From: Amoebophrya sp. A120
Lineage: Eukaryota; Protista; Dinoflagellata
NCBI GenBank assembly: GCA_905178155.1
Contig: CAJINV010000017.1
Coordinates: forward strand, 175,639-239,638
DNA length: 64,000 nucleotides
Reading direction: 5' to 3'
The translations under genes and the position numbers were made by a program. Positions within the stretch are counted from its first letter, which is position 1. Every line of letters begins with the position of its first letter. Below, piece after piece: positions 2,009 to 62,300 of this stretch. The notes below the pieces were generated by a model that saw only the letters and a program-made list of their open reading frames with translations, had not been told where the DNA came from and ran no database searches.

Positions 2009-3767
2009 ATGAACGGGGAAGCTGCTGGTGCGCCAGCAGCGTCTGCGTCGTCATCCCCCAGCACGACGGGACGAGTTGCTGAAGGTTCAGTAGACCGTCC
2101 GCCCGGTAGCAGTAACACTTCTTCGTCGAGTATCGAAGAAAAAAACACCATCACAATCACATTTAGGAGGTTTTGCATCAGAAATTTCTCTCGCATGACA
2201 AATTTTTCTTGTATTGCAAAAACCCAAAGGGAAATCGCCAATAGCTCGTGACTGTCATGCATTTTTGCGCATGACAAAAATTTTTGTATTGCAAAAATAT
2301 GCAAATGTGATTGTGATGGTGTTTTTTTCTTGAATATCGAGGACGTCCTCGTCGTGGTTCGGATTACTACTTGGGACGACTGCGACGACCGAAGAAGATG
2401 ATGCAGACCATAGACATAGTCATCGTCATACAGTTAATACAGATCCTGCAGCTCATAACATAGAAGGTGTTGAAGACTTGAGTACCCCTGCAGCAGCGGG
2501 TCCGAGTGCTGTTGACTCGTCCTCAGCAGGTTTTCTTTCATCTGCTTCCGGCGCATCTACCGCTTCTCACCGTTCCTGCAGCCCGTCTTTACTGGAACAC
2601 GGACGAGAACAAACAGGCAGTTTTTCCCATCATGCGGGTGATGAACAACGCGAACAAACTCCAATCGCCCGCAATCCGCTCGATGTATTCGGCGCTCGAC
2701 AGGACCTTTGTTGCTTCTGCATGTACCCACTGATAAGTAGCGCAGCTGCTCCTCCGGACGAGGAGCAAGCGGGACAAGGCGGAGGACGAAGACCTTGTTC
2801 GCCGGCAAGAACGCAAGGGACCGCGGCAAACGAATCTCAGCAGGAGGAGGTGGTAAGTGGAACACAATCTTCATGTGGTACTACAAGTTGTCCTTCTACT
2901 TGTTCGAGGACGACAGAGGAGCCCCAGCTGCAGGAGCCGGCAGATAAAGTGGTCCAGAACAGCGTTTGTGGGCACTTTTTTCACAAAGCTTGCGTCGATG
3001 TTTACCTGCAGAAGCAAACGAAACACTACCGCGTGCGGTACGCTACCTGCCCACACTGCCGCGAACCCTGGATCAAAAAAGAAAAAGTGAAGTGGATAGA
3101 GACTTTCAAAGACCGAGCCGAGTCCGTCTGCCTCCATCTCGCGGACCAGTTCGGCCATTGTTGCTCCGCTTGGAAACAACTGCTGAGACTGCAACCGCTT
3201 TCGGATTGGCTCCCGGAGGAACGGCGCTACTTTCCAACGCGTAATGAGTTTATCGGCCTTACCAGCGGAAACTGCATTTGCATACACGCAATTTTGCAAG
3301 CAGTGAACTTCCAGCCGGAGAAGGCATGCTTTAATTTCCTCACCACCCCGGGCTTACCGAGTGTGGAGGAACTTGTGGCGCAGGCAACTGGTGTGCTCTC
3401 CAGTCTTACGGAATTACCGACACACCAGATCCAAGCGTTAAAACACGCTGTGGTGATGTGTTGCATTTGCAACGGCTGCTTTGTTCTCCGCAGACCGCTG
3501 GTGGAAGGGGTGCGGAGAGGCTTCCACTGGCCCTGTCTGCCACCGAAACGCGCGGAACAGGAGCAGATGTGGGAGGTATGTTACGATCCTGCAGATGACC
3601 AGGAAAGAGAGAAGTTTAAAAATAGCGGCCCTTGTATTCACGACGACCTTAGGCGCCCGAATGATGTGAACCGTCATCACGGACATGGAGTCGCAGTGCG
3701 CCAGTCAGGAGCCGCAGGAGCATGTTCACAGGCAGCAGTGCCAAGCCAGCTGAGGATGTGCGAGTAA
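2009..3767 (+). CDS. RING-H2 zinc-finger protein (putative E3 ligase), 2 exons; start uncertain (2009 or 1682)
   Basis: CxxC at 2709-2720, CGHFFHKAC from 2967, CPHC at 3048-3059. Removing 2131-2341 (211 nt) joins ORF 1682..2251 to the open frame leading into ORF 2478..3767 (SSS-RTSSSW). Confidence 0.7.
2131..2336. mobile_element. TIR intron-like element (introner), family F
   Basis: Perfect 29-bp inverted repeat at 2136-2164/2303-2331 inside TAT...ATA ends. Direct repeat TCGAG at 2126-2130 and 2337-2341. Removal restores the frame. Confidence 0.9.
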
Positions 3768-5196
3768 ATAAAGGCACCCTGAGGCTGCACACGAGATGCA
3801 GGCTCTCCACATTTTTTACTGAAGTTGTCCTGATGCTGATGAAGATGTAGTGAAGCCGTGGTGCGCGTTGATGAAGATGTAGTGTGGTCCGCGTCCATGC
3901 ATCGACTGCTGCTCCGCGTTTATTTGATCTTCATTTAATGGCCCTCATCACAAAGAACCGATGGATCAGGATCTTGATTCGATGTGGGCGGTTTGGAAAG
4001 ACAAAGGGTAGAAAGCGCCTCGAACAGCGACGATGGATTGCTCGCGTTTGGTGTTGAGGAGGACCTCGACCTCGTTGTATGTAACTATAAAAGTTTCAGT
4101 TAGTCCGAACCCACTCACTCCAGCATGTCGGAAGAGAAACGAGCACTGGTGACGCTTTTAACGGTTGTAGGGAACAACAAGTTCTTTCAACAGAACGACA
4201 ACGAGCGTGGACGTGGAGGACTCACTGTCCCCGTAGTAAGTAAGTACTTGGACGACCGCTTTCTTCCGTACTTGTTCTTTCTGTGTATCATGTCAGGCAG
4301 AACAAGTCCCGAAGTACTTAATCCATAATCGGGAGTGTAAAGAAATATCAAGATCATCCACTTCTTGAGGAAGATACTCAATGGTTCCCCAGATCTTGAG
4401 TTCGTCCCTAGATCATGAACATGATCAGCGACTGTGGTATTTTCATTGATCCTCATCCTCTGAATCGAATCCGATCCTATTTTTAGGTCAAGGTTCATCT
4501 TGCATCGTTTATTTTCCGACGTATCTAATTCTAGATGATGTACTAGCTCAAGCTCCGAAATCACAATCAGCAACGAACGAAAAGGATCTGAAAAGAGCTG
4601 AATGATCATCCATTGCAACTCGAAAGCCATGCATTGAAAGTCAAGTAATCGTGATCCCAATTCATCCAAAAATCGGTCAAGATCAAATACAACCAAATGG
4701 TGTTGTACGCATGGTGATGATCCTTTGCTGCCTTGAAGAATTGACTAAAATGCCTCACGAGAAGATATGGATCTTCATGACACGCTGTGAAAAATATGAA
4801 GGAGAGCCACATGATCAAGTTACGACCGCACATTTTCATTTTCTCTCCCAAAAGCCCTTGTCAGCCTTCCAAATCACTTTTGCTTTTCGTTTTGTTAGAA
4901 AAATATCCCACATTTTGGCAAAGGCTTTATCCATTTACGCTGTCTACTTACGCTTTTTGAATGATGAAGATTTGACCCTCTTGTATAATTTCTAAAGTAT
5001 GTAATGATGTTTTCGCTTCGGCAGTACTAACAAACACGCTTTATCATGTTCTCCTGCATTCATAATTTGTCGTATCGAAACGAAGCAAGAAGAATTTAAA
5101 CGGTCGCGCAACAACATTGTCTCCCTTCATCTTATATGTTCTAGCTTTTCATCTTTCTTCACGGCGACAAACACAAAATAAAAACACTCGACTATC

Positions 5197-7792
5197 ATGG
5201 TGTCGCATGATCGTACAACAAGTTCTGCAGCGCCTGCCGCAGCAGGAGCAGGCGTCAAAAGAGCCTCCACGGATTCCCGAGTATACGACACTAGTGCCGG
5301 CACAAGAACTCGTTTGGTCTACTACCAGACCGGGGACGGGCAGTGGGTGACGATGGCCGAACCGGAAGATGACACCTTTGAGGAGGACCGTTCCTCGAAC
5401 ACCAGCAGCATTTGCGGTTGCGCCGTGTGGGTGTTTGTCTTGATCATCGTGCTGATTTCCGTCCTCGTGTTGGGGGGTATCATCGTCGCGATTGTCCTCT
5501 TAGCGGCGAACAACGCCTCGGACACCGGAAACAACCATACTCCGGCGCAGCCCCGCCCGCCCCCGACCGGCGACGACATTTTGGATTCTCTGGTGAACAT
5601 GAACAAGGACGTGCCGGAGGAAAACCTCCCGGGTTATCACCAACGCCACGTGTCCGCCTATACCCGGCTGGCGAGCCCGAGCGGGAATCTGCTCGCGGAG
5701 ATCACGAACAACGTGATCACGGGGGAGGACCGCTATTCGTACACGGCTACCGACCGCCTGTTCGACGACGGGCAAACGATTGTCGCGTTTCTGAGCCGGA
5801 TCGGAGTGCGCAGTCGCTCGACGCAGACGGTGCTGCCCCAGAACTTCACCCAGCTGGCGCAACGGGACGTCGAGTACCGCACGTCCTTCGGACTGCGCGT
5901 GGACATTGGGGACAGCCCGGACTGGCAGAACCATTTGGTCCTCCTGGATACGGGCGGCGGCGCCATGAGCTACTTCCTGGCGACGCAAAAGCAGCTGCAA
6001 GATTCTGGGTTCCGGAACCGCAACACGGGCCGCGGCCGGACGCACAACAGCACGACGAAGAAGGACATTCACATTGTATGACAATGCACAACCCCCCCTC
6101 GTCCCCCTCATTTGTATTTCTATTTTTGCATGAGCAGCATAAATACAGACACCCTCACGACCTGTGGAGCCAATGCTTGCATGATAAATTTTTGTTGTTA
6201 GTAGTGTAGTACTCTTTAGGCCGCTTCCGGAGTTTGTCCTGCGAACAGTGCCGAAGGGAAGCACTTTGACTTTGGTTTGGGGTTTTGCATGACAAATGAG
6301 GTCGTGGTGGAGGGGGAGTTGTGGACTTTCATACATTGTGACCAAGTTTCAGAAGGACCGGGACTACGTCGAGTGCCGCTACGTCGGGGGCTGCCACAAG
6401 GGGCGATTGGTGGGGGACCGTTGGAAGATTGCCGGAAGCAACGCGCAATTGCAGTTGAAAGACAACAATTTCGTCCCATCGGACCAAAAAACCCTGCCGC
6501 TCGTCTACGTGCAGGAGCCCGGCAGGCGGGACAATCCGGACGGCGGCAACTTTGGGCTCGGTTTCCGCACGGAAACGTGGAAAAGCAACATGTTCACGAG
6601 CGAGATCAGCACCATTCTGGACCAGTTTCGCCTCCACAGCGTCTACAGAGGGGCAGCTGCGGGTCTTGCAAACGACCCCTTTCGCCCGATGGTGTACAGC
6701 TTCCAGCTGGCCCGGCCGACGGGGGAGAAGACCACCGAGTGGCATGTGTACCCGCAGCTGGTTATCAACAGCCTGCCTCCGGACAGCGGCGACCGGCTCC
6801 GCGCGTTCGACCTGGCTCAGCAAAATTTCGCCGTCCGGGCGGGCGACGTGCTACTGCAAAAGCTGGAGTCCGAGTGGGGCCAGGAGGGTGCGTATCCGAG
6901 GGAGATCTTCAATAAGATCAAATCCGCACGTATTGACAAGGATGAGCACACCTTGAATTACCTGCGGTCGAAGGTGCTGCGGAAAATCTACAACGGCGAC
7001 TTTGGAACGCCGCAAAAACGGGAGCAGACCACCACCAGCCCGTTCTACAAACAGATTGTCAAGCCAGCGACGGATTTTCGCCCGACCTTCTGGCAGCTCC
7101 ACATCACGCGGGTGCGGATCGGAAAGACAGTCGTGGAGGCGGAAAAGGACATGTTCAAGTACAAGTTCAACGACGCGCGGGCCCGCATGCCCGAGCCGGA
7201 CCCGAACAAACGGCTCGACGCAACCTTCAAGCCGACCACCGACTGGGAGTACGGGTGGGACGCGTTCGACCAAAATTTGGCCGACCGGAGCGCGAGCGTG
7301 TTTGACCAGACCGATTTGAAGCGGAAAGTCCACCCCATCAACGGCCCGCTGCACACCACGAAGATACGCATGGTAGCGGTGGATGGGACGTTGGCGGACA
7401 ACTTTGACAAGGACCAAGACGAACATGTCCACCCGGACAAGCGGTACCTCGCCGTGGTGGACTCCGGGTGGTCCATGCTGTCCCTCGCGAAGCCGCTGTA
7501 CCGGATCTTTCACCGGAAGCTGGAGCTGGTCAACTTTGTGTGCGAAGACGGGCCGGAGCTGGGCTTCGAGTTCGAGACCGGCACGGAGCGGCACTGGTAC
7601 TTTTTGACGCCGAAGGACTACTGCTTCTGCCAAGGGGTGTATCTCGGCAACAAAAAAGTGAACAGTTGCGTGGACGACGGCGGCATGGATGGCCGCGACG
7701 GCACGGCGGTGATGCTGGGCATGCCCTTCCACCGGGCTTTCTACGTAGGCTACGACTACAACAACCGCAAGCTCTGGCTGCCGAAAATGTAA
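5197..7792 (+). CDS. Pepsin-like (A1) aspartic protease with N-terminal membrane anchor, 2 exons (5197-6076, 6339-7792)
   Basis: Hydrophobic segment VWVFVLIIVLISVLVLGGIIVAIVLL. Catalytic motifs LLDTGG (5947) and VVDSGW (7460). C-terminal MLGMPFHRAFYVGYDYNNRKLWL matches the A1 ILGxxF..FD pattern. Removing 262 nt joins the two ORFs in frame (DIHI-VTKF). Confidence 0.85.
6077..6333. mobile_element. TIR introner, family B
   Basis: Ends tatgacaatgcacaacccccc and gggggagttgtggactttcata. Direct repeat CATTG at 6072-6076 and 6334-6338. Frame restored. Confidence 0.9.
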
Positions 7793-9734: not shown

Positions 9735-12197
9735 ATGATGATAATGTCGCCTCTAGTACAAAAATCGTCCTTCGACATGTGTTTCTTCTTTGTTGCGATC
9801 CCGCTAGCCATGGTTTGTCCGCCCGTTCCTGTTGCGATCGTACCTGTCTGGTCCCCTCTCGATGTCTTTGTCGGAGTGGTTGCTGAGGAACAGGCAGCCC
9901 ACCGGAACACTGTTGAAAATGATTCTACATCTACTACAGATTTTGTCAACATAACACAGACGCATTCCGATTCCGAGGATCGTCTTGAACAAGTGCCTGC
10001 TTCTGCTGCACTGGAAACAAGTCGTGAAGCTGCTACTGACACTGCAAGTAATCGTCCTGTTGCTTCTCATACAAGAAATGTGGAGGCACGAAGAGACAGA
10101 GACTTACAGCACGACAAGATCCTCGTGAAAATGGATGACATACACATAGATGAAAAACCACCAGAACAACACATCAAACAGGACAACGCCACACACAACA
10201 AACCCGGTGGAAGTTCTGCAGCTTCTGGTGCGCCGCATGGAGATCTTTCCACCACCTCCAACATCCATGCTCAACCCAAAGAGGAAAATAAGCAACGGAA
10301 ATCATCAGACGATTTGCAACATCCCCTGCTGCTAAACTTTTTTCGGCGTAGCAGCCGTTTTAGTTACACGGTTGGCGCAGCGGTGTTTTTTCTGGATTTT
10401 CTGTTCGATAGCTACGAGTTTTTTGCGTCGTCCTTGCGGTGGATTTGGATAAACTGGCTGATGCCAGGTAAGGACCAGCGTCCAAAGTCAAACACAACTT
10501 TCAAGGATGCAAGTAGTACGGCGACGAGCTCCTCAACGGCCCGAACGAAGCTTTTCACCCAATACACGCAACAGCATTCGCTCTACTCAAGGCGCAGACT
10601 GCCGAGCGGTGGGACGCTAGAGGAAAATGGAAAAGATGAGAAGAAGAAGCACCAAAACGAACGAAAGGATCTGGATCAGGAGCAACAGCAGGAACCCGCA
10701 AGAGGAAGAGGAAGAGCTGCGAAGCATCTTCTCACGGAAAGCGATCAACAGCTGGAAGCGGCTCATCGAGATCAAGTCCGAGAGAACGAAACAGCTAAAA
10801 TGGCTAGCGGTAGCGCCACCAGCTCCAGCAACGACACCGAGCGTGACTTGAACAGTACGGTGGCTACGGCCGAGGTAGAAGATGAAAAAACGCCGGAAGA
10901 AGGACAAACTCAGCCGACGCCTGCAGCCAAGGAAGCGGATGTTGACCAACAAGCGCTGCAAGAAGAAGAACACTCTCCCACCGCTACGCACGAAAAAATT
11001 GATACCAAGTCCTCCGCCGCGGCAAACAGGAGCCCCAGCAAGGTTTCTTCCTCCGAGATGAATTTGAATGATCCCCACGAACAAGAACAGCTGAAGAAAA
11101 GAAACAAATCTTCCTCGCACAATCTGAACCACTCTCTTCTGCACTGGATCCTGCGCATCATGGAGCTCTGTTTTTTCACCGCGCCAAATTTTGGTCTGTA
11201 CGGACTGGGGGCAAAGGTGTTCTATGAACTGAAAATATGTTGTCTGGGTGCAGGAAAGACGCCACGAATTTGTGTTATTGAGTGATGCATGATGACACAA
11301 CGATCTTTTGTATGGCATCCACGAGTCACAAGCTTTTCCTGTGGTATTGCGAGACCCATCGTGATCATTTGCATGACAAACTGAGTTTCACAGCATGACA
11401 AAAAAACTGCCCAATTGTATTCATTTTTATGCATCACAAAGAAATCATCGCTGTCCTTGAAGTTTCGCATCACAAATCCAGACCCAGACATATTTGCAAT
11501 GCATATGCTCGAACTGTTGACCATTTCCGCGGAGGAGTTTGACCGGTTGGGCGAGAGCATTGACATCGACCCGGACCAAGAGCCGCTTTTCCTGGTGGAC
11601 AAGGTGATGCGCGGGGTCAGTGACTCGGGGGAACTGGAAATCGTGCAGCAACTGCGCGAGGTGGCTGAGGATTTAGAGAAGATGAAAAACTTCTTCCAGT
11701 ACCACCTTGGTTATTCTACCGACCCGGACCACGCCCATTGGCCAACCGCGAGCTCAAACCAGGCGAGGAAAAGAGCAAAGGATCTTAAAGACCGGCGCAG
11801 TACTCTATCTTCACGGACCGCGACTGCAAATCAGACTGATGGTGCAGACGGTGTAATACTTTCGTCCGATGAGAACAGCTTCGGCGGGGGCACATCAAGT
11901 AGCAGTCACAACTTCAAAAATCCGCCGGTATTTACTCTCGAGGACCTGGTCCACCACACACAGAAGGGGGTCGAGAAAGTCTTTTCCTGGCTGCTTTTCT
12001 TCGCACACTACCTTTTCGTTTCTTTCGGGCTTTTGGTCTTTTTCAACGTGTTTTTCGTGTGGCTGGTGATGTGGCTTATCGTGTGGGGAAACGTGCGACT
12101 TACCGTGGACGGGCAGTCAGTGCTGGGCGAGCGGTGGATGGAGAGACGCCAGAACGACTTGAAATTTTTCCAAGGCTTTTTCCAACTGGCAATGTGA
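9735..12197 (+). CDS. Hypothetical membrane protein, at least 2 exons (start uncertain)
   Basis: ORFs 9735..11285 and 11415..12197 join in frame after removing 11223-11510 (288 nt). Several hydrophobic segments separated by low-complexity linkers. Confidence 0.65.
11223..11505. mobile_element. TIR introner, family A
   Basis: Ends tatgaactgaaaatatgttgtctggg and cccagacatatttgcaatgcata. Direct repeat TGTTC/TGCTC (4/5). Frame restored. Confidence 0.85.
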
Positions 12198-13179: not shown

Positions 13180-13986
13180 ATGGCGATCAACCTGGACAAG
13201 GCGTCCCAGCTGTACGCGCAGTCGATGGAGCTGCCCATCCCACTCAACACCGCCGCCACGAACGTGATCGACCACGTCGACCAACTGAAAATCAGCAAGG
13301 TCCAGCAAATCTCCACGAAGCAGCCCAACCCCTCCCTGGTCCACCTGACCAAGGTTCCCTTCGAGAACTGGCAGGCGTGGCGGGAGAAAAACCACGACGA
13401 CCGAGTATTACAATGAAAAATGCCCCCACCCCAGAACTTGGCAAGTTTGTCTTGCAAACCTTTCCACTAGAAACATTCCCCGTCTTGCATATATCAGCAT
13501 CACAAATTTTAAATGCGGAACATCTAAAATTTGTGTTGCGCAAGAGCCCAGCAACAGCCGGGCCTGTCATATGAAAGACGCCTTACTCGCCTATATTCTG
13601 CATCAGAAAGATTCATAGTCCTTTCATGCAAGACAAAAAGTCTTCATTTGGAGACTTTGCATCGCAAATTTTTGAAGCATTCGGGGTGGGGGCATTTTTT
13701 CTTTTGATACCGAAAAATCCGGTTTTTCATCCGGTCCGTGATGGGCCGGTGCGTGCCGATCGAGTGCGAGCCGTGGAAAACCGTCGGGGACCTGAAACAA
13801 CTGATCTTTGAAGCGGAAGACATCCCGAAGCACTTGATCCGACTGCGGACAAAACAGGGGTTGGACCTGGAAAAAGACAACCACGTGCTGGACAAGGACT
13901 GCGGGTTTACCTTCGAGAAGGCAAAGGGGGACCCAAACAACGTCACGCTGCGCTGCATCTGCAGGGAGAGCGTGATGTGGAGGTGA
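13180..13986 (+). CDS. Small protein with C-terminal ubiquitin-like domain, 2 exons (13180-13405, 13715-13986)
   Basis: The spliced product reads IRFFIRSVMGRCVPIECEPWKTVGDLKQLIFEAEDIPKHLIRL, resembling ubiquitin [43 protein letters not shown]. No terminal GG. Confidence 0.75.
13406..13709. mobile_element. TIR introner
   Basis: Ends tattacaatgaaaaatgcccccacccc and ggggtgggggcattttttcttttgata. Direct repeat CCGAG/CCGAA. Removing 309 nt keeps the frame. Confidence 0.9.
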
Positions 13987-14983: not shown

Positions 14984-15246
14984 TTGCCGCTGGCATGATA
15001 TATAAAGCCTCGTCCTGGGGGACGGAGAAGGATCATTAGGTTAAGCTCGCTCTAAAAGTTTCGCTTAGATTCGTCGTGAAGATCGATATCATTCCTTCGT
15101 GAAGATTTTTCGTACAGGCTCTAGCTCATTGATTTTGATGAAATTTGACCGGTCTACATCTTGATACAAGTAACCAAGGTTTGTGAACTCGAAAATCAAT
15201 AAAAACGTTTTCATATCAAAGCGTGGAAATTTTTGATTGTCGAAGG

Positions 15247-43219: not shown

Positions 43220-43385
43220 CGGAGTTCTTTTACAAGACCACACTGTCACCGCCGGGCGAAAAAAATGAAAATCTGACGTGGAAATAAATGATGAAGATGC
43301 ATGCGATAGACAGACTCGCACTTCTATTAAAGAGCGACCACAAAAACTAGAAGCTGCTTGCGGCGGGCGCCCCCACATCACTTCA

Positions 43386-47133: not shown

Positions 47134-47201
47134 GCCTTCCCCGCCCGCCTGCCTTCCCCGCCCGCCTGCCTTCCCCGACCGCCTGCCTTCCCCGCCCGCC
47201 T
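47134..47201. repeat. 17-bp minisatellite, 4 copies
   Basis: gccttccccg(c/a)ccgcct in tandem. Confidence 0.85.
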
Positions 47202-48695: not shown

Positions 48696-49404
48696 ATAAC
48701 AACTTTTCCTTCCCAGCCTCCATCATGTGATGTTTCATTGCGCGCGCACGCCTCTTAGTTTTATTGCGGCGTGGTCCAAACGAAAACGATTACTCCAGTC
48801 GTGTTTTCAACGAGAAACTACGCAGTGCACATAACAAAAAATGAATAATCATGAGCAAATTTTTCATGTGGAATAAAAGATAAACATCGGTGTCCGTGGT
48901 CTTCGACGAAGGACACTATTTTTTGTTTGCAAGGTGTGCGCCGGATTAAAAAATAAGAATATGAGTCTGCCATGAACCGATGGCGAAAGCGACACACTGC
49001 ATGTCCATGGTGCGCTAGGGCTTGCTGCAAAGGTTGTTTTCTTTCGCATGCGCATGGGCGTTGTTTTGGAGTCCGAGAAATCAAGAAAACCTGCTGTCGA
49101 CGTACCAGCTTGGGATGTATCCAGTCTTCAGCCACGGCATAGTCGGAAGAGAAATATGCATCAGGCAAGCAACTAAGAGTTAGAGTATGAAGAGAAGGAC
49201 TGCAACTATGGGTTGGACTAGGAGCACATTAAAAGGCTCCAGCATCATGAAACATCTGCGCAGGGAAGAAACCTACTATCTTCGCGATTATTTGTCGCGA
49301 GTTTTTAGTTTTACATAGTATGTACTATGCCGCGGCGGAAGCAAGCAGTCGCCCGGCGCCGGGCCCGATAGGTTTCTATTTTCCACGACCGTGGCGGGAC
49401 TACC

Positions 49405-52400
49405 TTGCATAGCATGACTCTCGGAAATCTGCATAACCCGACGTGGCAGGGCACGACCTATTGCCCGAACGCTGTGTCCTTGCTTGCGCCGGATTTCGAT
49501 GACCCCTTTGCTGAGGTGCAAATGCGGACGATGGCGTATCGGGCTGGGAAGGTTTTTTATGCAATGGCTACCCGCGTTGATGAGAATGGAAATTTGCGAT
49601 CGTCTCCGCCGGATATCAGCAACCACGATGAAAGCTCCGTCACAAAAAATTGCAAAGCGAGACCGGGTCTAACATACCAGTGGGCCCTGGTCATGCCCAT
49701 CGGCGGACAAACACAAGTCAGCAAAGGCGATCTGAGAGTAAAGAACAATTTGGCGGGCACGTTTGTGATCCAGGAACTGCTTCGGCATGATTTTGAATAC
49801 ACAGGCACGCACAGTGTTGCAATGGCTGAGCTATTCCCGAAGAACTTTGTCGCGTATTTGCCGTTCACCAGTCCCGGAGAGGCAGAAGATCACAGTCAGC
49901 AGCCAGATGGAAAGAAACAACCACACTACGTTCGGCTGCCGCCCAGATCCCGAGCGCATGAGTTTTGGGAAGCTTTCAACGAACGAACTGAAACCTATTT
50001 GGAGTATCATGCATTCCAGAGGAAAGATTCGGGCCTCGTCGTGTATGTGTGGGGCGGACCGGTAGGGAGACAGCACTGGGACCGGGTATTAAGCAAGTAC
50101 GACGGTGATGGTGCAAGTTTTCAGGTCCTGAGAGAAGCAGTTGGCGAAGGCGGACGTGTGCATCTGGCTGGACGGGCCATAGAAAACATCGAGCAACACA
50201 GAAGCCTCGACCTTTTGTCGACCAATGCGCAAGAAGCTACTCTTGAAATGATGTTGGCGCAGCAGGGGCTGCAGAAGGTACTAAAATACCAGGGGCAGAC
50301 TGTTGAGCAGACCCGTCTCCAACTCAGCGGTGTGACTTTGACGATGGTACCCAACCAAGCGACCCGCAGCTTTATTACGCAGCAGCACCAACAAAATTGC
50401 TACGAGGAGCGCGGTGATTCTCATCAAACAGATACAAAGGAGAATGTGCGACAAGGTGTTTTCGCCACATGCGGAAGGATGTTGGGGGTGGCGCGCAAGA
50501 TCTTTATCGCACCGACCGGCAATCCGCAACAGAAAATCGCCACACTTTTCCACACCACTCGCGAGAACGTCGAACAGTCGTACAAGAGTATTATTGACAT
50601 TATGCAGTTTGGAAATCGTGGCGACGGTGAGGTGGAGTTTGTAAGCCCATTGAGCGGCAAAAACGCCAAAAACATCCCGGGCAGCGACGCGGATGTGAAA
50701 AAAGTATTGGAAGGAATGCGCAAAACGTTAGACTGGCAGATGCTTGGCTGGCTCGGTTTGAGGCTGTCACAAGCAGATAGCCTCGACCTGCGAGAGGAGG
50801 TAGTTGAGTACAAATTTACGGGCACTGCAAATAGTTTTGACGCGCTCCATTACGAGCGCAATATTGAAAAAGCCCACGAAAAAAGCCCGCAGACGAACAG
50901 GATCAATCGCAACAAATATTTGGAGAAGCAGAAACAGGCGGAGGTCACGCGTGGTGTCGTCCCCTTCGATGCTCGGTGGTTCACGACGAGGGACACCATA
51001 TCAAATGAAACCGCCCGGACTTGTCATTGTCTTTCCCATTCTTATCTCCCGTGCGCGCACTCCCAACGAGGATGAGCTCACACTGAGTATATGCTAGAGC
51101 TCACTCTCACAGGCGAATGCATGAATGGCGCACAAGGTAGGTCGGCGCTTGAAACTATTTCTGAAACCACGAGCAGCCCCCTCATTTCGCGCAATGGCTT
51201 GATGTTGACTACGAACATGAAGCGCGAACGCCCACTCGTATTGCTTTGGATGTTGAGGTCTTGGCCTCTCGCGGCCACGGGTCGAGTTCTCGATCGAGCG
51301 TAATCGTGGGCTCTGTGGGTGGCTTTTCGCTTTTTTCTTACTGTCACGACTCCCTGTATCCTCGCTTATCGGTTTTGTGGCGACGTCCCTAACGAGTCCA
51401 CTCTTGAAAAGTTCAACTTTTTTAAGCCTCCCTACATCCTCGTCGCCATGAGTGAAGTTGCAGTTGTTGGCGCCGCTGCCGGCCCGCCGTTGCTTTTCCA
51501 TTTATTTTTTTCAGTTGCTACTACGTGTCTGATAGCGTTCTGAATTCTGTAAAAATAGAGCCTGCTAGAAGATAGTCACTTCTTCAGCTACTTATTTTGC
51601 TGTCGATAGACAGTACTGGGCCCACTGTGAATGTCTGTGTGTTGTATTGTACGCAGATACCCGAGAGCCCTCGACCCCCATGCAAGAAGCCGATTTTTTT
51701 CTTTCCCGGCCTCTCCTCGGTTTCGGTCTTTCAGACTTACGGCTCGTGGGCTTTTGGTAAGAAACCCCGTAATATCTTCGAACAAATAAGCAGTCAGCGG
51801 AAAAAAATAGGAGCGTGGGCCGGCAGCAGGCGTGGCGCCACGTGATGTAATATTTTGACATCACGGAGCGCCGCTGCGCGACAACTGCATGCAGCAATCG
51901 CTGAACTACGTAGTAATAATAATGAAATGCGAGAAGGAGAAAGAGAAGACAAAAAACTTCAAGTGAATAGTTTGCCCGGCGCCTCAAGCAGCTGACACGG
52001 TTCATGTCGAAGGAACAGAACCACGAAGAAGAGCTCTCTATTGACCCTGATGATGACGTTGTCGCTGTCGAGATGACGCCGGATCAACACAATGCGAAGA
52101 CCAAAGAAGAAGAACAGTCCATCAAAGAGAATGCACTTAAGCTGATTCAGAAGTGCCCCGGTGGGTTTACCACGGACAAGCCAAGCCCAGACGCACATTC
52201 CCTTGAAGACCTGACACCGGATCAGAAGAAGAATGTGCGGTGGGCCATACATCAAACACGGACGCTGAAGAACTTCCTGCTAGAAGGAAATCGTGAGGCG
52301 CCAGTGTATTGCTTGCCGACACCGCCGCAGGGTGCTGCCCCGCTTCGGCAGTTCCTTGTTCTAGCGCACGACACTGGGATGCAGAAGGAGTTCGATTACA

Positions 52401-52519
52401 CTTTTCTGCAGTCGCGCCCACGCGACGGGGCAGACCCACCGAAGGTTGCAAATTTTCAAAGGTTATCCGAATTGGGAATGCTTTTCGCTTTACTCCGAGC
52501 ACCTCTCGGCGATAGATAG
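49405..52519 (+). CDS. Unknown family X protein, copy 2 (exons ~49405-51000 and ~52004-52519; intervening structure unresolved)
   Basis: 556-aa and 171-aa ORFs are collinear with the reconstructed copy 1 at 32452-37200. Confidence 0.75.
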
Positions 52520-52694
52520 GACTCGTAGGCATGCTTACCCGTTGGATTGCTGTCATAGCAGACGTCTAAAATCTCAGAAAAAAGAAAGCAACCACCATGA
52601 AAGTTTTCATGTAGGAATGAGCAGGCCTCGCCCCGGCAATTGCATTCGGACCAATGCAAATCGCAGTCGCACCTTCACTTTTTTTTTTTTCAGT

Positions 52695-52820
52695 GTGCAC
52701 GGCGGTAAGATTCAGATTCAGATTCATGGAGCGGCAAGATTCATGTGCGTGGCGGTAAGATTCAGATTCATGGAGCGGTAAGATTCAGATTCAGATTTCA
52801 GTGTGCATGGCGGTAAGACT
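52695..52820. repeat. Degenerate tandem repeat of ggcggtaaga(ttcaga)n
   Basis: About 5 copies of gcgg(t/c)aaga, most followed by variable numbers of ttcaga units. Confidence 0.8.
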
Positions 52821-55800
52821 GACTAATATCAAGAATCGAAAAGGAATAGCGCGAAAGCCCGTACAAATTGCGCAGGCTTTATTCCTATATGCAGTTTGCT
52901 TATTCAGGCGCGCGGAATGAAGAAACCGACAGACCAGCACAGCAAGAATTGACAGCATAGAATAGTCGCGCAGCGACCTTCGCGGCGCTCAGAAGCTAAA
53001 GCAGTTTGTTACCTGCTCGGTAGCGCCACTGCCTGAGCGGCTGGGGCCGAGCCGCATGTGGCGTTAGCTTGCGGACGTCGGCGGGCAGGATTTCTCTTCT
53101 TGTTTTATTGTTAGACTCGCTTGTTAAGTAAGCAAAGCAATTCCCTTCCATATCGGACCGTCAACCCGCTGGAGCGTCCCCCCTCGCAGATGGGATATGG
53201 TCTGTGAAGTGTGGCAGCTTTTGGTCGTTGCGCCGGGTCTTTTCGTACTTCGTGGCACAAATCACGGAAAGGCCTCCATGTATGTATCTCATCGCGTCGC
53301 TTCCGTTTGGTAAAGCAAAGTCCTGTGACTTTCTCTTGTATTTTGGCGCCGCGCTTGCAGGGACTGGGCGGCACCTGCACTCGCATGAGAATACTAGGCA
53401 CCTAAGTTATAGATAGAAGAACGAATAGCGCAGCGAATTGTAAGAATGAGCTATAACTGACCCCGAGGCCTTTCCAATACTAGAAAAGAAACCAAGGTAA
53501 GCAGTGGGTGCTTAGATCTCAAACTGCCACACAGCGGACGCTATAAGACGCTCCACGACGAAGACGACGACGAAGAAGACGACGACGAAGACGCCCTCGC
53601 GGAGTCTGGAGGGGTGCGCCCTGGCGCTGGGTCAGGTGCGCCATCAACCAAAACCACAAAAACCAAGAAGAAAAAAAAAGACGAGAACAGTGCCTGCTGT
53701 AGTTGATAACGGCTGCGAGGCTTCTATCGATCATTTACAGTTTATTCGCTCCTGTCATTACCTAGAGGCCATATTAATTAAGACGCTTCTCCTGCTTTTC
53801 AGGAGTAGAGGGATGACCGCTATCGCATATTATATTCTTCACTCATTGTCATTTCAAGTCAGCTACCGGCGGTGTGGTCCCAAAGAGTATCTCGCACCAC
53901 CTGAATCGCAAGCAGCTGAAGTAGACGAATCTTCGTCAATTTTGAGATAAGTTTAAGTAACAAGTTGCATAGTCATTTTTTTCAGTCGGAGAGAAGACTA
54001 AGAAAAGCAAGAGCGGGCGTGACTAGGATTTGCACCATTTGCACGAAGTGTAAGTAGAGCGAGAGACCAGCCCGTGCTCTGCTTTCTTATTCTCTCTCTT
54101 CTTTGACCGGCTGGCGTTTTCCGATGCATTTCCATGATTTTTGTGTTTATGTCGAGTTTATTTGTCCTACAGTCACGAAGGAGCTCAACACTCGCAGATA
54201 TAATTGCAGATCGAAATCAGAAAGAGCTTAATGTGTTGCCACAACAAGTTCCGCGACTATTGAAAAGCCCACGCATGGTTTTGATTTGAACTATTTGCTT
54301 TTCTTGACTTCGAAGTAAGAGTAACGCTCAGGACTCCAACGAATTTTCATCCTTTTTCAACTTTTTTCACAGTTTGACTTTGACAAAGTGTTTATCAATC
54401 CGAAAGCATGACAATATTGCATTTTTTTATCATTCACCCAATTAGTTAAAGTAGTCTCAGATCTTCCTTTATTTTAACAGTTCATAAATAACGAGGTGGC
54501 CCCTTTTCAAGACTTTCGTATGTTTCTGCTTTAACATCTCCCAAGAAGAATTTTCGAAATTATCGGCATCTTAACTCGAAGTAAATGTAAGAAAAAGCCA
54601 AACCCAAAGAGTCGTATAACAACTAGCTCTGCAGGTTCATCCACATATTTTTTTTACAACCGTTCCTCCAGACTATAGCATCGCATTCGTCTATTTCTAC
54701 CGACCTCATTTATCATTTTCGAAAGAAAAGACACGGCATTCGTATCTTCAAATTGAAATTTGTTAAAGTACATTAACTATTTGGATAAGAAACCGAACGA
54801 CGATCTTTTTTGTTTCACACCTTCCTAGTACAGCTCTGCCGTGGCAGTGTTGTGCGCATTAATATGTTTCACATATTCTTTTTGTTTCACCGACCAACAA
54901 TCTAACAAGCCAGTTTGTACTGCTGTCTCGCATCCATTGTTCACATCGAGGTCTAAGGTCATACATAGCAATGTCAATGTGTTCGACACCAGTCCTGACG
55001 TCAACTTGGTTCTCTTATTGTCCTCGGTTCTTGCTCTTATTGGCTGAGTAGAAAACGTCCCGTCCCGTCACTTGATACCTCCAAGTCCCACAAAAAAACT
55101 CCGCCTGTATTGAGCTGCATTGGTTGCCGCGCTTCAAGATGAAGGAACTCATTGCGTGGCAGGCTCTGGTTGTATGAGCACGAACGGATCTGGTGAACTC
55201 GTGTGACCACATCACGTAGTGATTTCGAAAGCAAGTTCCGCTTGTACAGCTCGCAGCTAGGCTACGAATGTAATGTGGAGAAGCCTCCGAGAGGTGTCGC
55301 TGTCACCTGCGGGGGAAAAACATAGAAGCATGATGATAATAAGTATATTTAAGATCAACATCAGCAAAGCAGAAGTCCAGTGAAAGAGGTCCATAATCAG
55401 TCGTGGTCGGTTTTTCGTCGTGTCGTTGCAGAAGCAAAATCGCCGGGATGAATAGCAAGCAAGAGCGAACAGAAGCAGAAATACACAAGAAGCAGACTCA
55501 GGTATGGGAAAAAAACATTGATGCGGGAACTTTTGATTTTGTTGCACCGTGGTATTTCCTTCATATTGAGCAGCTCGCTGGATTTACCAGGACCCCTCTA
55601 CTTTTTCTGCAAAACAAGAACGCCCTGCTTCTGCCCGATGATCGAACTCCAATTCGAGCTCGCACCCATTAGAACAGAGATTTTATTGTGAATATTATTC
55701 GTATTTAAAAAAGTCGGAATCGCCCTCGTCGAAGATCAGCTGCAGGTCAGGTTTTAGGTTTACAACTTGCTGTTCGTAAAAATGCAATAGCTCGGTCGTC

Positions 55801-56312
55801 CACGAGCATTGCGTGTCACAACTATTTGTCCGCGTTGGAACAACGACGTAGGGCCACGGGACGTCGACAATGTCAGTGGGTCGTGAAAATCAAAGTAGAT
55901 GTAGATTTTCGTATTAATATAAAGAGGACGTACTTGTTACTCCACTACTTCGAAAAGTTCCTGCGTTACTTCTACATTGTCTTTACAAGAACTGAAACAG
56001 ATATCGGTTTTGTCGTGCCGGTCTTCCACATGTAACTATTACTCTTACGCGCGAGTACGAGATGCGCAGCTACCTATGAAATCGCAAAATAAGAACAAGA
56101 AGCACCATGAATCTACTATGACCGTCGCCCTGATAGAAGATGAAAAAAAGTTCACGGCACTTTTTTTTACTAGAACGTCGAAGTTGCCTACTCATTTCTT
56201 TGAAATTTCTTCTCTCCCCTTCTTTGCAAGGAAGTCGATGTCTCGCCTTCACGTTCGCTAGCCCTAGCGCAGTTTCTCATATTGATTCGGAGAACCGGCC
56301 GTCCGCCCCATC

Positions 56313-59300
56313 ATGATCGTCCGCACCATCATGAAGGCTGCTCAAGCTTCCCGTCGCGACCACGGGCGGCGCCCGGCTCCTCTCCTCGTTGGACCGAATA
56401 AGATGCTGGTTCTCTTATTTGACTTTGCAATTCTGTGGCTTCCTTTCGTCGCCCTGCTTCTCCCGACGCCCGCGACTGCGAAGTCGCTGGCTGACTGCAT
56501 CACCGACCTGAATGCCGGTGTGGGTTGTGAGCTCGACCCGGGCGTCCACAAGATATCCTCGCGGACGCAGCTGTCCGGCATCTCCGCGTCCAATATATTT
56601 CTGGCGGGTAGTACCGCGACCAACGCGCAGCCGAGCGTGATCGACGGGACGGAGGACATTTCGGCACTGCTGCAGTGGGAAGACTGTTCCACGCTGCCCA
56701 CCTACGCGGACACGTGCGCTAAGGCGCTGGCCAACGAGACCGCGGGCGCCAAAATCTACTCCGCACTGCTGCCGAACGACAAGCCGGTTTACCAGCTGTG
56801 GATCGACTCCACCGACGGCCTGAGGGAGAGCCACCTGGGCCGCGAGATGCTGATTCCCGCCCGGTGGCCCGACCCGACGGCGGACATGGGAGCGGCGCTG
56901 AATGCCCAGGCGGACGCCCCAATCTGTATCACCCGCTCAGGCGTTACAGTCTCAAATGTTGCGACGAAGTCTGGCACTGGATAAGGATTTTGTCTTGCAT
57001 GAAGACATCAAGACATGAACAATTGTAGGGCCTGCCACTATTCCTAATCCTATTCGCAAGACAAATTATTAAGCCAGAAGGTTCTACTTCCCATGTTTGG
57101 AGTTCAGAATTTGTCGTGCGTACTCCGGTGGTCAGAGTTATTGTTCTTATAGTGCACTGTTTACATCACAAATAATCTCCTCCGCAGCTGCTTCCATGGT
57201 TGTAACTCGTGAATTGTAACACTTGAAGGCGGGCCATAATCCGGGGCTCCATCTTCGACACCGCGCACACTTGGAGCCGCATTATTTACGGCGAACACGG
57301 CAAGGAGTTTGCGCACAGCGGGAGCTGGCCGACCTGGGTGCGCGGCACGGACGGCGACGACCCGCCAAACACAGGCTGGGGTTGGATCCAGGACGCGGGC
57401 GGTCTGACCCGGTCCTACCAGGTCGAAATATGTGAGTGCACAACGGGTCCCCTCCCGCCCCGCATTTGTCATCCGATGGAACCCGAAACCCAGCATGTGC
57501 TACCTTATCCTTATGGCACTGTTTGCATGACAGATTCTGGAAGTCCACAACCAAATACAAACTGTCACTACACTAAAACGAGGTGCACGAAGATGAATTT
57601 TCCATGCACACGCTCCACGTGTGCCGGTGGTGTTGCTTGCATTAAGGCTGTTCATGCAGCTCTAGTACAAATAATGAGGGGGACAAGGGGGAGTTGTGCA
57701 CTCTCATACGGAACCGAGGAAGGTCAGATCGAAACGTTGACCGTGTTACCCTCTGCAAAGGTGGTATCGTGCTCGTACTGACACTGATTGCAATATTGCA
57801 TGACAACAAATCAGCACAAGCAAAACGTGGCTTACCGTTAAAATGAATCACCCTCGTTTTTCTGTGTGAAGGAAATTGAAATTGATGAAAGCGGTATGGA
57901 ATAAACATGTATAAGTGCGATGTGTTTTGCAATGCATACGTGTCTGGCCAGGGTTATCTGGCCGACGCCGGGTTCAATGCGACGGGCGCGGTGATCGTCA
58001 TGGGCTGGGGCAAGCAGATGTCCGAAATGGGCTACGTGCACAACCACACGGGCAACTTTTTGTATTTTAACCGCATCCGCTGCCCCCACCACGGGGGCGG
58101 CACCAACCCGCCCTACCAGAAATCCCCCCCCTACGGGTCCTGTGCGGGCAGCCCCTTTGTCAAGTTGAAGAACGGGGAGGAGCAGGGCATGGCGGCCTAC
58201 TGGCTGGGCAACAAACTGGACTTTGTGAACAAGTACAAGGAGTGGCATTTTCACTCCTTCAACGGATCCAATATCACGGGGACCGGCCCGGGTTACGACG
58301 CCGACGAGGATTTCTTCGGGTCGGGCGTGCCGGACCCTGCGCAGGCTCTGGGCGCCTATTCGGGGCGGCTGTTTGTGCGGATGGAAAACCACCCGTCCAC
58401 GTACACGTGGCACAGCCGCGCCACCGAGATCGGTCTCGATTTTGACTGCAGCGGAAACAAGATGCAGCGCTTCACGCTGCGCAACATCGTCTTCTTCGGC
58501 AATGTGCTCAAGGGCTTCAAGTGCCACTACTGGACCGTGCACGACAACGAGTTCCTGTATCCTTCGTTCGCGAAACGCACCTTCCGGCACCAGTCCGGCA
58601 CCATCGACGCAGGCCTGCCCAACATCGATTTCGCCGACTCCAATAACTTTTACAGTTCGGACTACGGTAAGTGGGAACACGTACAAATTCAGCGAGGGGA
58701 AAGCGATGGAATGGCAGGGGGACGAAGTGGAGTGGAAGCACAACGAGTTCGCCTTCAACGGTTTCAACGCCCTGGACGGCGCGCACACCGTGCGCGTGAA
58801 GGGAGCGAGTTCCGACTACAACACCATACCGCCCCTGAAATTTTGGTACAACACGTTCCGGCACAACGGGCACGTGTCGGCCGTGTTCGCCACGGAGAAG
58901 GCCAGTTTCGTGCAGCGCAACCGGATCCAGCACCAGAACGTGGGCGAGCTGCAGCACGATGGCGAGGCCGTGGGCGCCGGCTCGGTAGGGACAGAGGACA
59001 GTCGGTTCATGTACAACTGGGTCGATTACGGCCACCACTCGCTTTCCCTTCGGTTCGATTGTTCCCAAACCGCGACCTTCTCGGACGTTTCCTATGAATT
59101 GCAAAAGTATCGTATTCGTATAAATGCATTACAAATTTTTTAGCATGAGAAATAGAATTACTTAAAAATTTGTATATGCGGATTTACCTTAAGAAAAAAA
59201 TTTGTAAATGCAAGACTTGCATTTATACGAGTGCGATACTTTTGCACAGGATATTTCCCGGAACGGCACGATGATGTACAATCTGGGGTACGGACTCTCG

Positions 59301-62300
59301 CCCAAACTGATCGTGAAGGGGGAGGACCACCAGATCCACTACAACACGATTCTCGACGGAGAGATGCACATTTGCCGTGACTTCGGGAGCAGTCTGTGCG
59401 GGATGAACCGGGACAGCTTCTTCAACAGCAACATGGCCTCGCTGTACAAGCCCCGCGGCGAATATCAAACAAAAAAAGTTCGTCACGATCACTCATGCGC
59501 ATTTTTGCAATACAAAATTGGCTGTCATGCGTAAAAATGCATGACAGCCAAGCTAGGGGATTTCCCTAGTGTTTCTGCAATACAAGGAAAACTTGTGATG
59601 CTAAAAAAATTTGTAATGCAAAACCTGCAAGTTACTGACTGTGACAAACTTTTTTCTTTCCATAGCGAAGGCTGCACCTCCAACTACGACGGTGTGTCGA
59701 TCGTCAACGGGCTTCCCACGGGCTTCGACGCGGCCTCGAACAAGCTGACCACCTCCGGCACCTCGTGCTCGTTTCTCCGCGACTGCGAGCGCTACGACTT
59801 CCGGCCGCACTCGGCGGCCAGCCCGCCCTACGGCGCCTTCCTGTACCACGACGTGGCGACCGAGGGCGCATTTGACGCCTACAACGTCCCCGGGAAGCGG
59901 CTCTTGCGGAAGCCGCAGCCCTTCACGCGGTCTTCCAACGTTACCGCCTCGGCGATCTCGGACTTGTCCTTGATTTTCATCGAGGAGCGGGACTGCGAGC
60001 TGGCGAACTACATCACGCTGTATTACAACACGGCGGAGTGGCCCATGGACAACGTGTCCACCATCCAGATTCCCGCGGGCATGAACGTGCTCCACGTGGA
60101 CAGCTACCTGCTCGGCTACGCCGCGTACGAGTGGGCGGTCACGAGTGGCTGCAGCGGGGACACGGTGAACGCCACGGGGCTGGGCTTCACGGCGGGCGTG
60201 GGGCCCCTGATCGGGCTCCCGCCGACCAGCACCACCACCACGACGAGCACCAGCACCACCACAACGACCACGACCCTGTACGTCGGGCCTGTCACCCTTC
60301 CGCCCACAACTACGACCACCCCCATCCCGGTCACCAGCCTGTACAACACGAACGCCACGGCGGCGGCCGAGGCCGCTGGCAACAACGCCGCCGACCCGGT
60401 GGTGCCGGCGACCGCCACTTATGTGGCCGCGGGATCCAACCTGACAATGGGGAGTATGCTGGCCTTCTCAACCGTTACATTCTCAACGGTTACATGATTT
60501 GTCATGCAAATTCACCACCAAGATCGCCCTGCTTAAGCGGTTCCGCATGACAAATATCCGAAGGGCCAAACAGCATCTAAATCTGTGCCAAATCTGTAAA
60601 TCTAAATGCAAAAGGGCAATTTTCCACCTTTCACTTTCGCTGTTCTTGCATTACAAATTCATGCAACAGCTGAGAATGTAACGCTTGAGAACCCCATAGG
60701 GAGTGCGAGCTCCAACTTCGTGAACACGTGTGGCATATGCACTACAAAACTTTCATACACCAGTGCCTGGTATTTCTAGTGGTAATTCTAAGTTTTCCAA
60801 GAAGACGCATGTTGAAAAAGGTGCGGAGCAAATTTTAATTTATATCTGTCATGCGAGATAATTAGAATTACATCCAGTGCGATACACTACGACTTTTGCG
60901 CAGGTGGATATGACACGAATGACAAGCTGCTGGACGCGACGCTCAGTACCTGTGCGGCGTTTGTCACCGCCATCAAGTCGTCGGTCTGTGAGGCGACGAA
61001 CAGTATGCTGCAAGCTGCCGCGACGAAAGACAGTACTGTAACGTACACCCGCATCGAGTGCACGCAGTTCCAGTTCACAAAGATCGCGATACGGATCGAC
61101 AGCGTGAGTTCTCGGCGCGCTCTGACGACGCAAGCCGCGAATATTACGATCGCTACCAATTCCACCGCGACGGTGACCGTGGAAACCGAGTACCAAATCC
61201 TGTTCTCGAACCCCGCCAGCGCGCTGGACGGCGGCGCAAGTGCCGCGGCCCTCGCGAGCCAGCTTTCGAGCGCGAGTGAGGATCCCGCGGCCAGCAGCCA
61301 ATTTCAGTCCTCTTTCACGTCGAATTTCGGCACCGCGGTGGCCAGCGACACGAGTCTGAGCACCATGACGGTCGCGTCCGTGGCGCGCAGCGCCCCGGTC
61401 GTGGAGTCGACCACGGTCTACGTGCCGCAGTCCGTGGTCACAGCGGCGCTCCCCCCGACTGCAACGGCGGAAACAAGTGGTGGCGGGGATAGCGACGACG
61501 GGGGCGCGGGGGTCATTTTAGCGGTTATCTTCAGCATCGTCGGGGTGGCGGGAATCGTCGCGGTCCTGCACTTCAAATACAACACCTTCGGGTTGCAGAA
61601 GGCGGCAAGTAGTAACTCGACCGAAGAAGCAGGCAAGATGAACCAGCGGGCCGAGGGCGAGGAAAATTTCGTCGACGTGGAGACTGGCACCCCGCCGGAC
61701 GTGGAGCAAAGCAGACCCAGTCAGAGTTCGCTGAAAAAGCTCGGCACGGTATGCATTGCAAAACAAGTAATGTTGTACCAGTTGTATAAAGTGCATGTTG
61801 ACAAATTTTCTCAAGAAGAAAATTTGAATTTGTAATGCTGATTCAGGTCAGAAATTAGATTTGTCATGCCTGAATGCAATTTGTATATACGAGTGCGATA
61901 CAACTTTTGCAATTCATACACGGTGGGCAACATCAACTCCGACATGCCGGAGATGGCGACCGCCACCGGGGTCAAAACCACCGGCCGGTGGCGCCGGTGG
62001 TACGCCAGCATGCAGTTCGGCTCGAAGGTGATTGAGGACTCGGCAAAGCGGGCGGAGGAGCTGGAGCTGGAAGATGTGCAGCTCAAGTTGGGTGACGGCG
62101 AGAGCGGTTTTTTCCAAAACAGCGCCCCGGTCGTTGTGGTGCAGGGGAACCAAAGTCAAGCGTCCGCGGTGGTGCCGGACGAAAACGACGACATGCTGAG
62201 CGCCGCGTCAGACCACGGTGCAGCGGTGGCGGGGAACACTGCAGCAGCTCCCGTAGTTGCGAGCACCTCGAGCGGCGTTGATCCGTTGGCGGGGACAACC

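Follow-up and report, generated by a model that had tools for sequence, protein, structure and literature searches.

Transposon-like introns in a 64,000-nucleotide window of Amoebophrya sp. A120 and their probable −1/+4 splicing register

Described introner systems and the A120 window

In the genome of Amoebophrya sp. strain A120, 65% of the introns have been described as non-canonical, and neither a U1 small nuclear RNA (snRNA) nor a transposase is reported to have been detected (Farhat et al., 2021, PMC7789003). The inverted repeats of its introners start with TAT, which seven loose bases separate from a stretch of A, and are accompanied by direct repeats of 3–5 nucleotides (nt). We analyzed a 64,000-nt stretch of this genome (assembly GCA_905178155.1, contig CAJINV010000017.1, positions 175,639 to 239,638 of the forward strand; hereafter the window, whose own coordinates are used throughout), in which elements with terminal inverted repeats (TIRs) interrupt coding regions. 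These elements are almost certainly the published A120 introners: they share with them the strain, the TAT-7 nt-AAA motif, direct repeats of 3–5 nt (illustrated there as 5 base pairs (bp)), the absence of GT-AG, a mean length near 240 nt, the occurrence in repeated families and the lack of a transposase in A120 (PMC7789003). The system is therefore already known, from the same strain, and is not a discovery of this work. In kind the two are identical; the splice position is described there as variable or unknown, whereas all 30 element junctions considered here, long and decayed elements included, fit an intron that begins one base before the element and ends four bases after it (−1/+4). This register, derived from 30 junctions in four gene models, is our one addition. 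Overall, the elements are best understood as published introners, likely non-autonomous DNA transposons, that a relaxed spliceosome likely excises at a fixed −1/+4 register, a reading that we consider probable.

Gozashti et al. (2025, PMC12130899) classified A120 introner families that resemble the window elements in being of the DNA type with TIRs. By its listed description, their family 38 has termini and a target-site duplication (TSD) like those found here. In their Dataset S2, the families fam56 and fam160 have 5´ splice sites at start −1, 3´ splice sites at end +4 and a 5-bp TSD; the registers of other automated calls are mixed. Families in which the TSD provides both splice sites have been described (PMC9860276), and strains AT5 and Kv are reported to use canonical splice sites (PMC12005148).

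Three more distant systems help to place the elements. In Fritillaria borealis, introns derived from miniature inverted-repeat transposable elements (MITEs) also combine TIRs, a TSD and non-GT/AG ends, and are reported to be removed by a changed U2 spliceosome (PMC11282704; bioRxiv 10.1101/2025.08.15.670264), which sets a precedent for the spliceosomal mechanism favored below. Their ends are mostly AG-AC or AG-AT and their target is TAC, whereas in the window the first base and the last four bases of the intron are free and the target is variable (PMC11282704). The nonconventional introns of euglenids likewise have TIR-paired ends and TSD-like repeats and lack GT-AG; there the pairing is conserved and the introns leave as circles, whereas in the window the pairing can decay and the gene models contain hybrids with one canonical end (PMC11282704). 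In at least three model introns whose ends are otherwise typical, end pairing does not exceed that of foreign ends, which departs from the conserved end pairing of the euglenid class. The tiny introns of Stentor are GU-AG, 15–16 nt long and not transposon-like, unlike the window elements, but their branch-point A is nearly fixed, 5 nt from the 3´ end, and provides a precedent for the branch point proposed below (PMC9505925). The window elements have TIRs and a TSD, high copy number and no coding capacity, as MITEs do. They lack the GT/GC...AG ends of canonical U2 introns, which lowers their membership in that class, not the claim of spliceosomal removal.

Anatomy, removal and register of the elements

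The elements were located by a strict scan (TA...TA, flanking 5-mers at least 4/5 alike, length up to 1000 bp), which returned 15 hits, 14 of them distinct, with TIR scores of 10.5–32 for the distinct hits. Five block shuffles gave 2–5 hits each, all scoring 9 or less. Together with an unbiased inverted-repeat scan, the strict scan recovers the elements of a preliminary description made from the sequence alone, and the addition of gene models and homologs brings the total to 37, spanning 144–2884 bp (31 within 144–418 bp, six of 689–2884 bp). All listed elements and host gene models lie on the + strand. That description had proposed about 26 interrupting elements, mostly of 144–394 bp, with 5-bp direct repeats; their existence is borne out and was understated, while the count and the size range were too low. 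It gave 18 elements with a perfect or 4/5 repeat; here there are 21 of 37. It gave TIRs of roughly 14–40 bp, but many are short or decayed, 13 of 30 having no more than 7 matches in their first 15 positions. A relaxed scan gave 35 hits, several with wrong partners (e.g. 32780–33016, 34224–34814 and 50999–51520), and about 12 were dropped as unsupported. No fewer than two similar candidates (38926–39125 and 40031–40222) fall beyond the coding regions examined, as does an element-like ATA end at 38012, for which a search found no 5´ partner.

The direct repeat lies outside the TIR, is 5 bp long and varies in sequence; it is perfect in 10 of the 37 elements, 4/5 in 11 and 3/5 or less in 16. Repeats of at least 4/5 thus flank 21/37 elements, compared with 32/1332 control cross-pairs. 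Flank matches average 0.64 for k = 5 and 0.24–0.27 for k = 3, 4, 6 and 7, a peak that is partly built in because 30 element ends were set as intron length minus 5. The end motif offers an independent check: counted from TAY, this length rule places the end on ATA in 24/30 cases and on AGA, ACA, ATT or ATG in 4/30, and on neither in 2/30 (46489 and 53196). Starts are TAT (25/30) or TAC (5/30). The TAT-7 nt-AAA motif has A at its three A positions in 19, 21 and 19 of 30 and is decayed in older elements; 14 of the 30 model elements have lost the repeat (2/5 or less). The hexamers GCATGA/TCATGC occur 42 times in 8460 bases inside elements shorter than 500 bp and 27 times in 48072 bases outside all elements, and are a candidate transposase-binding or splicing motif.

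Four deposited A120 proteins with neighboring accessions (CAD7969941.1, CAD7969943.1, CAD7969945.1 and CAD7969946.1) are 100% identical to the exons of the window. The corresponding gene models derive from assembled transcripts aligned with BLAT (methods of PMC7789003), and for each junction we enumerated every cut that reproduces the deposited protein. The model introns equal the element plus 5 nt. GT/GC-AG is impossible at any compatible cut in 30/31 model introns, one (40836–41182) being compatible; unrelated GT-AG sites, the outcome that would have contradicted the preliminary description, are therefore permitted at 0/30 element junctions. Intron lengths fall into all three mod-3 classes (11/12/7), and excision of the element with one repeat restores the frame across them, as had been claimed. 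The claimed gap-free alignment to paralogs holds in conserved regions (33663, 34000, 59093, 59463, 22574, 49118 and 50999), but gaps appear in poorly conserved ones (30093, 32193, 35016 and 36311). The proposed cuts 33662^33947 and 59092^59259 yield the right mRNA only because their repeats are perfect; at imperfect repeats the models cut one base further left.

The ends and the mobility of the elements are also visible in assembled contigs. In the DNA-like contig set, 58, 43 and 84 contigs with unlike flanks stop exactly at 33663, 33941 and 35271, respectively, which fixes the element ends independently of the TIR scan. The flanks have a depth of 41–45x, and the summed depth on 33663, 35016 and others is more than 1000-fold higher, which is not a copy number. 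Families occur in both orientations: 30093 is 81% alike to inverted 60455, both being excised in + strand models, and 2131 is 79% alike to inverted 59463, 2131 being assigned by the frame test only. Paralogous host genes have no intron position in common among those inside their alignments. In a relative, P0022 (95% identical), one host gene is a single open reading frame (ORF) of 1740 amino acids (aa), and the alignment diagonal shifts by 284 nt at 22574, that is 279 + 5; at the protein level, P0022 likely lacks the element and 5 nt, as an empty site would. With the models excising element plus 5 nt, the sharp multi-copy ends and the P0022 offset, the earlier proposal of transposon-derived non-canonical introns is upheld.

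Removal of the elements at the RNA level is very likely, on the indirect support of the transcript-based models and of two contig ends. Excision from DNA, as for ciliate internal eliminated sequences (IESs), or plain insertion into dead genes is very improbable. TAY...RTA ends do resemble the TA-bounded ends of IESs, and comparison with homologs shows frameshifts or a stop in two host genes. DNA-like contigs, however, span the element borders without differences at 41–45x, the single-copy depth of the flanks; four transcript-based models excise elements, and one of the broken genes is still covered by RNA-like contigs. Four sequence runs were mapped on 22000–41900, where the two runs of raw RNA reads contributed only 2 and 3 reads. 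An RNA-like contig fits 35644–35875 without difference and then continues with 20 letters located elsewhere, in agreement with a cut at 35876; a second one, which may be of either strand, begins at 38017, four bases past the ATA ending at 38012. The fraction of words of 56000–63000 that is present is 0.66–0.79 in four contig sets guessed to be RNA and 0.91–0.93 in two DNA-like sets, and of the 31-mers a fraction of 0.711 avoids the introns; these values are compatible with splicing and, the sets not being aligned there, are not counted as evidence.

The numbers of junctions (n = 30) that fit each offset of the intron start relative to TAY are 1 for −6, 8 for −5, 11 for −4, 15 for −3, 20 for −2, 30 for −1, 22 for 0, 8 for +1 and 3 for +2. 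The 3´ cut falls 4 nt past the ATA-like triplet in 28/30, and the register is kept in elements that have no repeat and have lost most of their end pairing. A single −1/+4 register is thus very probable for the window elements. The alternative that splicing is real and that its cut floats within the 5-bp repeat or differs by family, the register reflecting chance among 30 junctions from four models or a bias of the aligner, is improbable. It would agree with the published wording of variable sites (PMC7789003) and with the mixed offsets in Dataset S2 (PMC12130899), and the 10 perfect repeats are uninformative. Yet at four junctions (35876–36274, 36586–36872, 41545–41860 and 41193–41478) only one cut is possible, and all four are at −1/+4. 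Offset 0 is excluded by 8 junctions and −2 by 10, so the register is not produced by left or right sliding, and the RNA-like contig end at 35875 agrees with −1.

Aligned in the −1/+4 register, the introns have the consensus 5´ N-T-A-Y-S and 3´ T-run followed by S-A-T-A-N-N-N-N. The A at −7 is kept in 28/30, the AGA, ACA, ATT and ATG variants included, and is the only constant 3´ base of the 28 typical ends. Positions −4 to −1 are mixed, as is +1 (A 14, C 6, T 6, G 4). First and last dinucleotides form 20 distinct pairs among the 30 introns, so that the seemingly unlimited splice-site variety of the published accounts reappears here. Two introns, 40836–41182 and 46488–47817, pair one canonical with one element-type end. 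In Table S4 of Farhat et al. (PMC7789003), the nine commonest non-canonical A120 pairs all start with N-T, and the legend of S23 places the repeats 1–5 nt from the splice sites. An excess of GT and AT at 5´ ends in Dataset S2 was discarded as evidence, since sliding in a perfect repeat gives the same under any register (PMC12130899). The texts consulted give neither a fixed register nor a branch point for A120 introns, though figures and subscription papers may contain one.

Several observations weigh against the proposed reading. The register rests on gene-model proteins and thereby on the BLAT transcript alignments behind them, and no joined RNA read or contig was found at any junction among the joints listed, which all come from the DNA-like run. 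One RNA-like contig extends 31 nt into the candidate element 38926, which lies beyond the models, and the run behind this contig contains element sequence. Two of the 30 junctions (46489 and 53196) have no ATA-like 3´ end. Among the published data, 8/9 of the Table S4 pairs end in A-N, as would be expected under the register only with mixed strands, and the legend of Figure 3 describes the splice sites as variable relative to the hairpin, or unknown (PMC7789003). Most of the 41/58 A120 rows of Dataset S2 considered show other offsets, with TSDs of 2–6 (PMC12130899). The unbroken P0022 frame may come from a model after splicing and not from genomic DNA. A search of A120 for U1 snRNA is reported to have found none, most other spliceosome parts being reported present (PMC7789003). 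Transposase families are absent from the ORFs scanned with Pfam, which are part of the 212 ORFs of at least 100 aa in the window, in keeping with the preliminary remark that no transposase was found there. These scans covered 28 ORFs at E 0.001, with matches to a RING finger and two low-complexity matches, and 21 proteins and ORFs at E 0.05, with those low-complexity matches only; ORFs in the long introns 46489, 50999 and 52464 (up to 163 aa) were left out.

Host genes and individual elements

CAD7969941.1 (P0005, 523 aa; 21757–23612) is the middle part of a longer broken ORF and contains a single element, 22574–22852 (CAACA/CAACA, intron of 284 nt), the one absent from P0022. The gene at 20759–26279 looks broken: compared with the 95%-identical P0022 it is 4 nt short near 21263–21276 and has an in-frame TGA at 23610–23612, a region in which a DNA-like contig agrees without differences; RNA-like contigs cover 23704–26511. 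An alternative genetic code is not needed, as the TGA at 23610 is absent from P0022.

CAD7969943.1 (P0002, 1703 aa; 27982–37363) has 11 introns, none of them GT-AG. The first element, 30093–30370 (TTCCA/CTCCA, intron of 283 nt), is the relative of inverted 60455. It is followed by 30605–30936, with a decayed 1/5 repeat and an intron of 337 nt, and by the long 30971–31784, with a 2/5 repeat and an intron of 819 nt. Two elements with a TAC start and a 1/5 repeat come next, 32193–32404 (intron of 217 nt, cut at −1 or 0) and 32787–33117 (intron of 336 nt). The young element 33663–33941 has a perfect 32-bp TIR and AACCA/AACCA repeats, whereas the long 34000–34814 (TAC...ATT, intron of 820 nt) has lost its TIR and excludes a cut at 0. 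A second young element of high copy, 35016–35271, has a TIR of 28 of 30 and GGGAA/GGGAA repeats. The remaining three are 35877–36270 (TAT...AGA, unique cut 35876–36274), 36311–36532 (CGCGG/CTCGG, intron of 227 nt) and 36587–36868 (TAC start, unique cut 36586–36872).

Of the 14 introns in CAD7969945.1 (P0004, 1410 aa; 40410–53699), 13 are non-canonical. The GT-AG-compatible intron 40836–41182 is outside the 37, and its 3´ end lies exactly 4 nt past the ATA of an inner element-like stretch at 40939–41178. A 10-nt micro-exon precedes element 41194–41474 (unique cut 41193–41478), and 41546–41856 (TAT...ACA, unique cut 41545–41860) has weak end pairing. The 2.9-kb intron element 41899–44782 has TAT...ATA ends and GC-rich repeats inside; 11 of its ORFs were scanned, with no Pfam match. 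Within 41899–44810, the 3´ end of this intron and the start of the next exon occur three times, near 43400–43450, 44235–44295 and 44750–44810, as possible alternative acceptors, and the intron also holds a 41-bp duplicate (42111–42151 / 43179–43219) and GC-rich inverted-repeat arrays. Downstream are 44896–45313 (TAC...ATA, AGAAA/AGAGA, intron of 423 nt), the shortest element 45426–45569 (144 bp, CAGCT/CGGCT), 45673–45998 (repeat 2/5, intron of 331 nt) and 46064–46311 (repeat 1/5, intron of 253 nt). Element 46489–47813 corresponds to a 1330-nt intron with an N-TAT start and a CAG end without ATA, either a hybrid or merged introns. This intron (46488–47817) has element-type ends in its interior, a strong 3´ one at 46820 and a 5´ one at 47450; it may comprise two introns with a skipped exon between them, or stem from the fusion of two genes. 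The last five are 48688–49050 (TAT...ATG, AGCAT/CGCAT), 49118–49411 (GGATG/GCATG), the long 50999–51969 (repeat 0/5, end pairing at control level, cut at −2 or −1), the long 52464–53152 (repeat 2/5, cut at 0 excluded) and the exception 53196–53589, with a TAT start and a low-complexity 3´ end without ATA.

CAD7969946.1 (P0012, 961 aa; 58502–62363) has five introns, again none of them GT-AG: 59093–59253 (TTTCC/TTTCC, intron of 166 nt), 59463–59664 (GCGAA/GCGAA, 207 nt), 60455–60698 (GGGAG/GGGAG, 249 nt; the inverted relative of 30093), 60736–60910 (TGGCA/TGACA, 180 nt; weak end pairing) and 61750–61918 (CACGG/CACGG, 174 nt). The paralog to which it belongs, 56286–62363, shows a frame break near ~58667 relative to three homologs, either a mutation or an assembly error, and the deposited model starts at 58502 in another frame. 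Upstream of this model, excision of 56927–57238, 57429–57708 and 57747–57938 at −1/+4 gives an open frame with a close match to the AT5 homolog; these three are supported by homolog and frame only. The first (ATCTG/ATCCG) yields W-G-S-I-F-D, compared with W-I-S-L-F-D in a paralog; the second (CGAAA/CGGAA) yields VETEE with cuts from −2 to 0, compared with VETEQ in the AT5 homolog; and the third (TAC...ATA, CGTGT/CGTGT) yields ETLTVSGQGY, as in the AT5 homolog. Two long paralog pairs of unassigned function are nested as A-B-B-A across 20759–62363, and family A has relatives of 30–48% identity in other transcriptome sets and of ~60% in strain AT5.

Four further elements, placed by the frame test only, precede these genes: 2131–2336 (TCGAG/TCGAG, TIR 32 of 34, of the 59463 family and inverted), 6077–6333 (CATTG/CATTG), 11223–11505 (TGTTC/TGCTC) and 13406–13709 (CCGAG/CCGAA). 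The host of 2131 is a RING-finger ORF at 1667–3767 (PF13639, below the curated cut-off). The gene at 5182–7792, interrupted at 6077, has the motifs DTG and DSG and, at its C-terminus, one like LGMPF, a combination reminiscent of pepsin-type aspartic proteases; a Pfam scan of its two separate ORFs gave no match. An unbroken ORF of 1545 aa at 15187–19824 also has no Pfam match. A proline-rich tandem repeat and a second short tandem array occupy 62640–63030 and 63330–63570, and the single N of the window is at 63863.

A proposed route of insertion and excision

The TAY...ATA inverted ends and the 5-bp target duplication suggest that the elements are non-autonomous DNA transposons, which an integrase-like DDE transposase encoded elsewhere would mobilize. 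The best candidate is the integrase-like enzyme of A120 family 38, which is known from a table row that gives '5-bp TSD, TA/TA Termini', a length of ~808 bp and LTR-integrase-like homology (LTR, long terminal repeat) (PMC12130899). An assignment to Ginger was dropped, as family 38 is listed without Ginger homology, termini and TSD (PMC12130899) and no integrase-like ORF was found among the window ORFs scanned.

An insertion would create the arrangement 12345-element-12345, from which a cut at −1/+4 would leave 1234 from the left copy joined to 5 from the right one in the mRNA. With a −1/+4 cut and a 5-bp duplication, the original mRNA is restored for every insertion, whatever its phase or orientation. 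Since the mRNA uses five of the ten duplicated bases, the other five are free to decay, as in the 14/30 elements with 2/5 or less. Less securely, the splicing signals may be supplied by the TIR itself. The donor consensus is GUAAG, which the invariant +2 U and +3 A of the window introns resemble; one TIR end would give N-U-A-U-G/C and so keep these two bases. The far end would provide a U-run and, for the branch point, the A at −7, while distance and not AG might determine where the 3´ cut falls.

We lean towards a relaxed spliceosome that reads short end motifs at a fixed distance, as a ruler would, over cleavage of a hairpin, because decayed elements keep the register, families are excised in either orientation, and two model introns mix canonical and element-type ends. 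Cleavage of the TIR stem by a non-spliceosomal endonuclease and ligase, staggered at −1 and +4 as proposed for euglenid introns, would act on the same elements in the same register and is a less likely but serious alternative. The ends of young elements pair into strong duplexes (−30 to −54 kcal/mol), a symmetric stem makes orientation independence natural, U1 snRNA is reported missing from A120 (PMC7789003), and euglenid introns do leave as circles (PMC11282704). Several points argue against such cleavage. Foreign-end controls pair as strongly as the element in 11/36 cases for 41546, 13/36 for 60736 and 24/36 for 50999, and in two introns an element-type end is paired with GT or AG at the other end. 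Moreover, the cut is asymmetric and tracks the direction of the transcript, the +2 U is fixed, and most other spliceosome components are reported present (PMC7789003).

Taken furthest, the ruler-like spliceosome of A120 would read no terminal dinucleotide at all: it would recognize an N-U-A-Y donor and cut six bases past the branch A in the far TIR, and each insertion would be a perfect intron at birth. We put this forward tentatively, as a proposal that may well prove wrong. If it is true, the apparent diversity of splice sites reflects a single rule, blurred by alignments that slide. Farhat et al. (PMC7789003) leave open how most A120 introns are spliced in the absence of GT-AG and of a detectable U1. 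A fixed −1/+4 rule would make this question testable, through a lariat at the −7 A, covarying bases in U6 and U5, and loss of the AG reader. If true, it would also explain why insertions are harmless and why the repeats decay, and would offer a simple aid to the annotation of these genomes.

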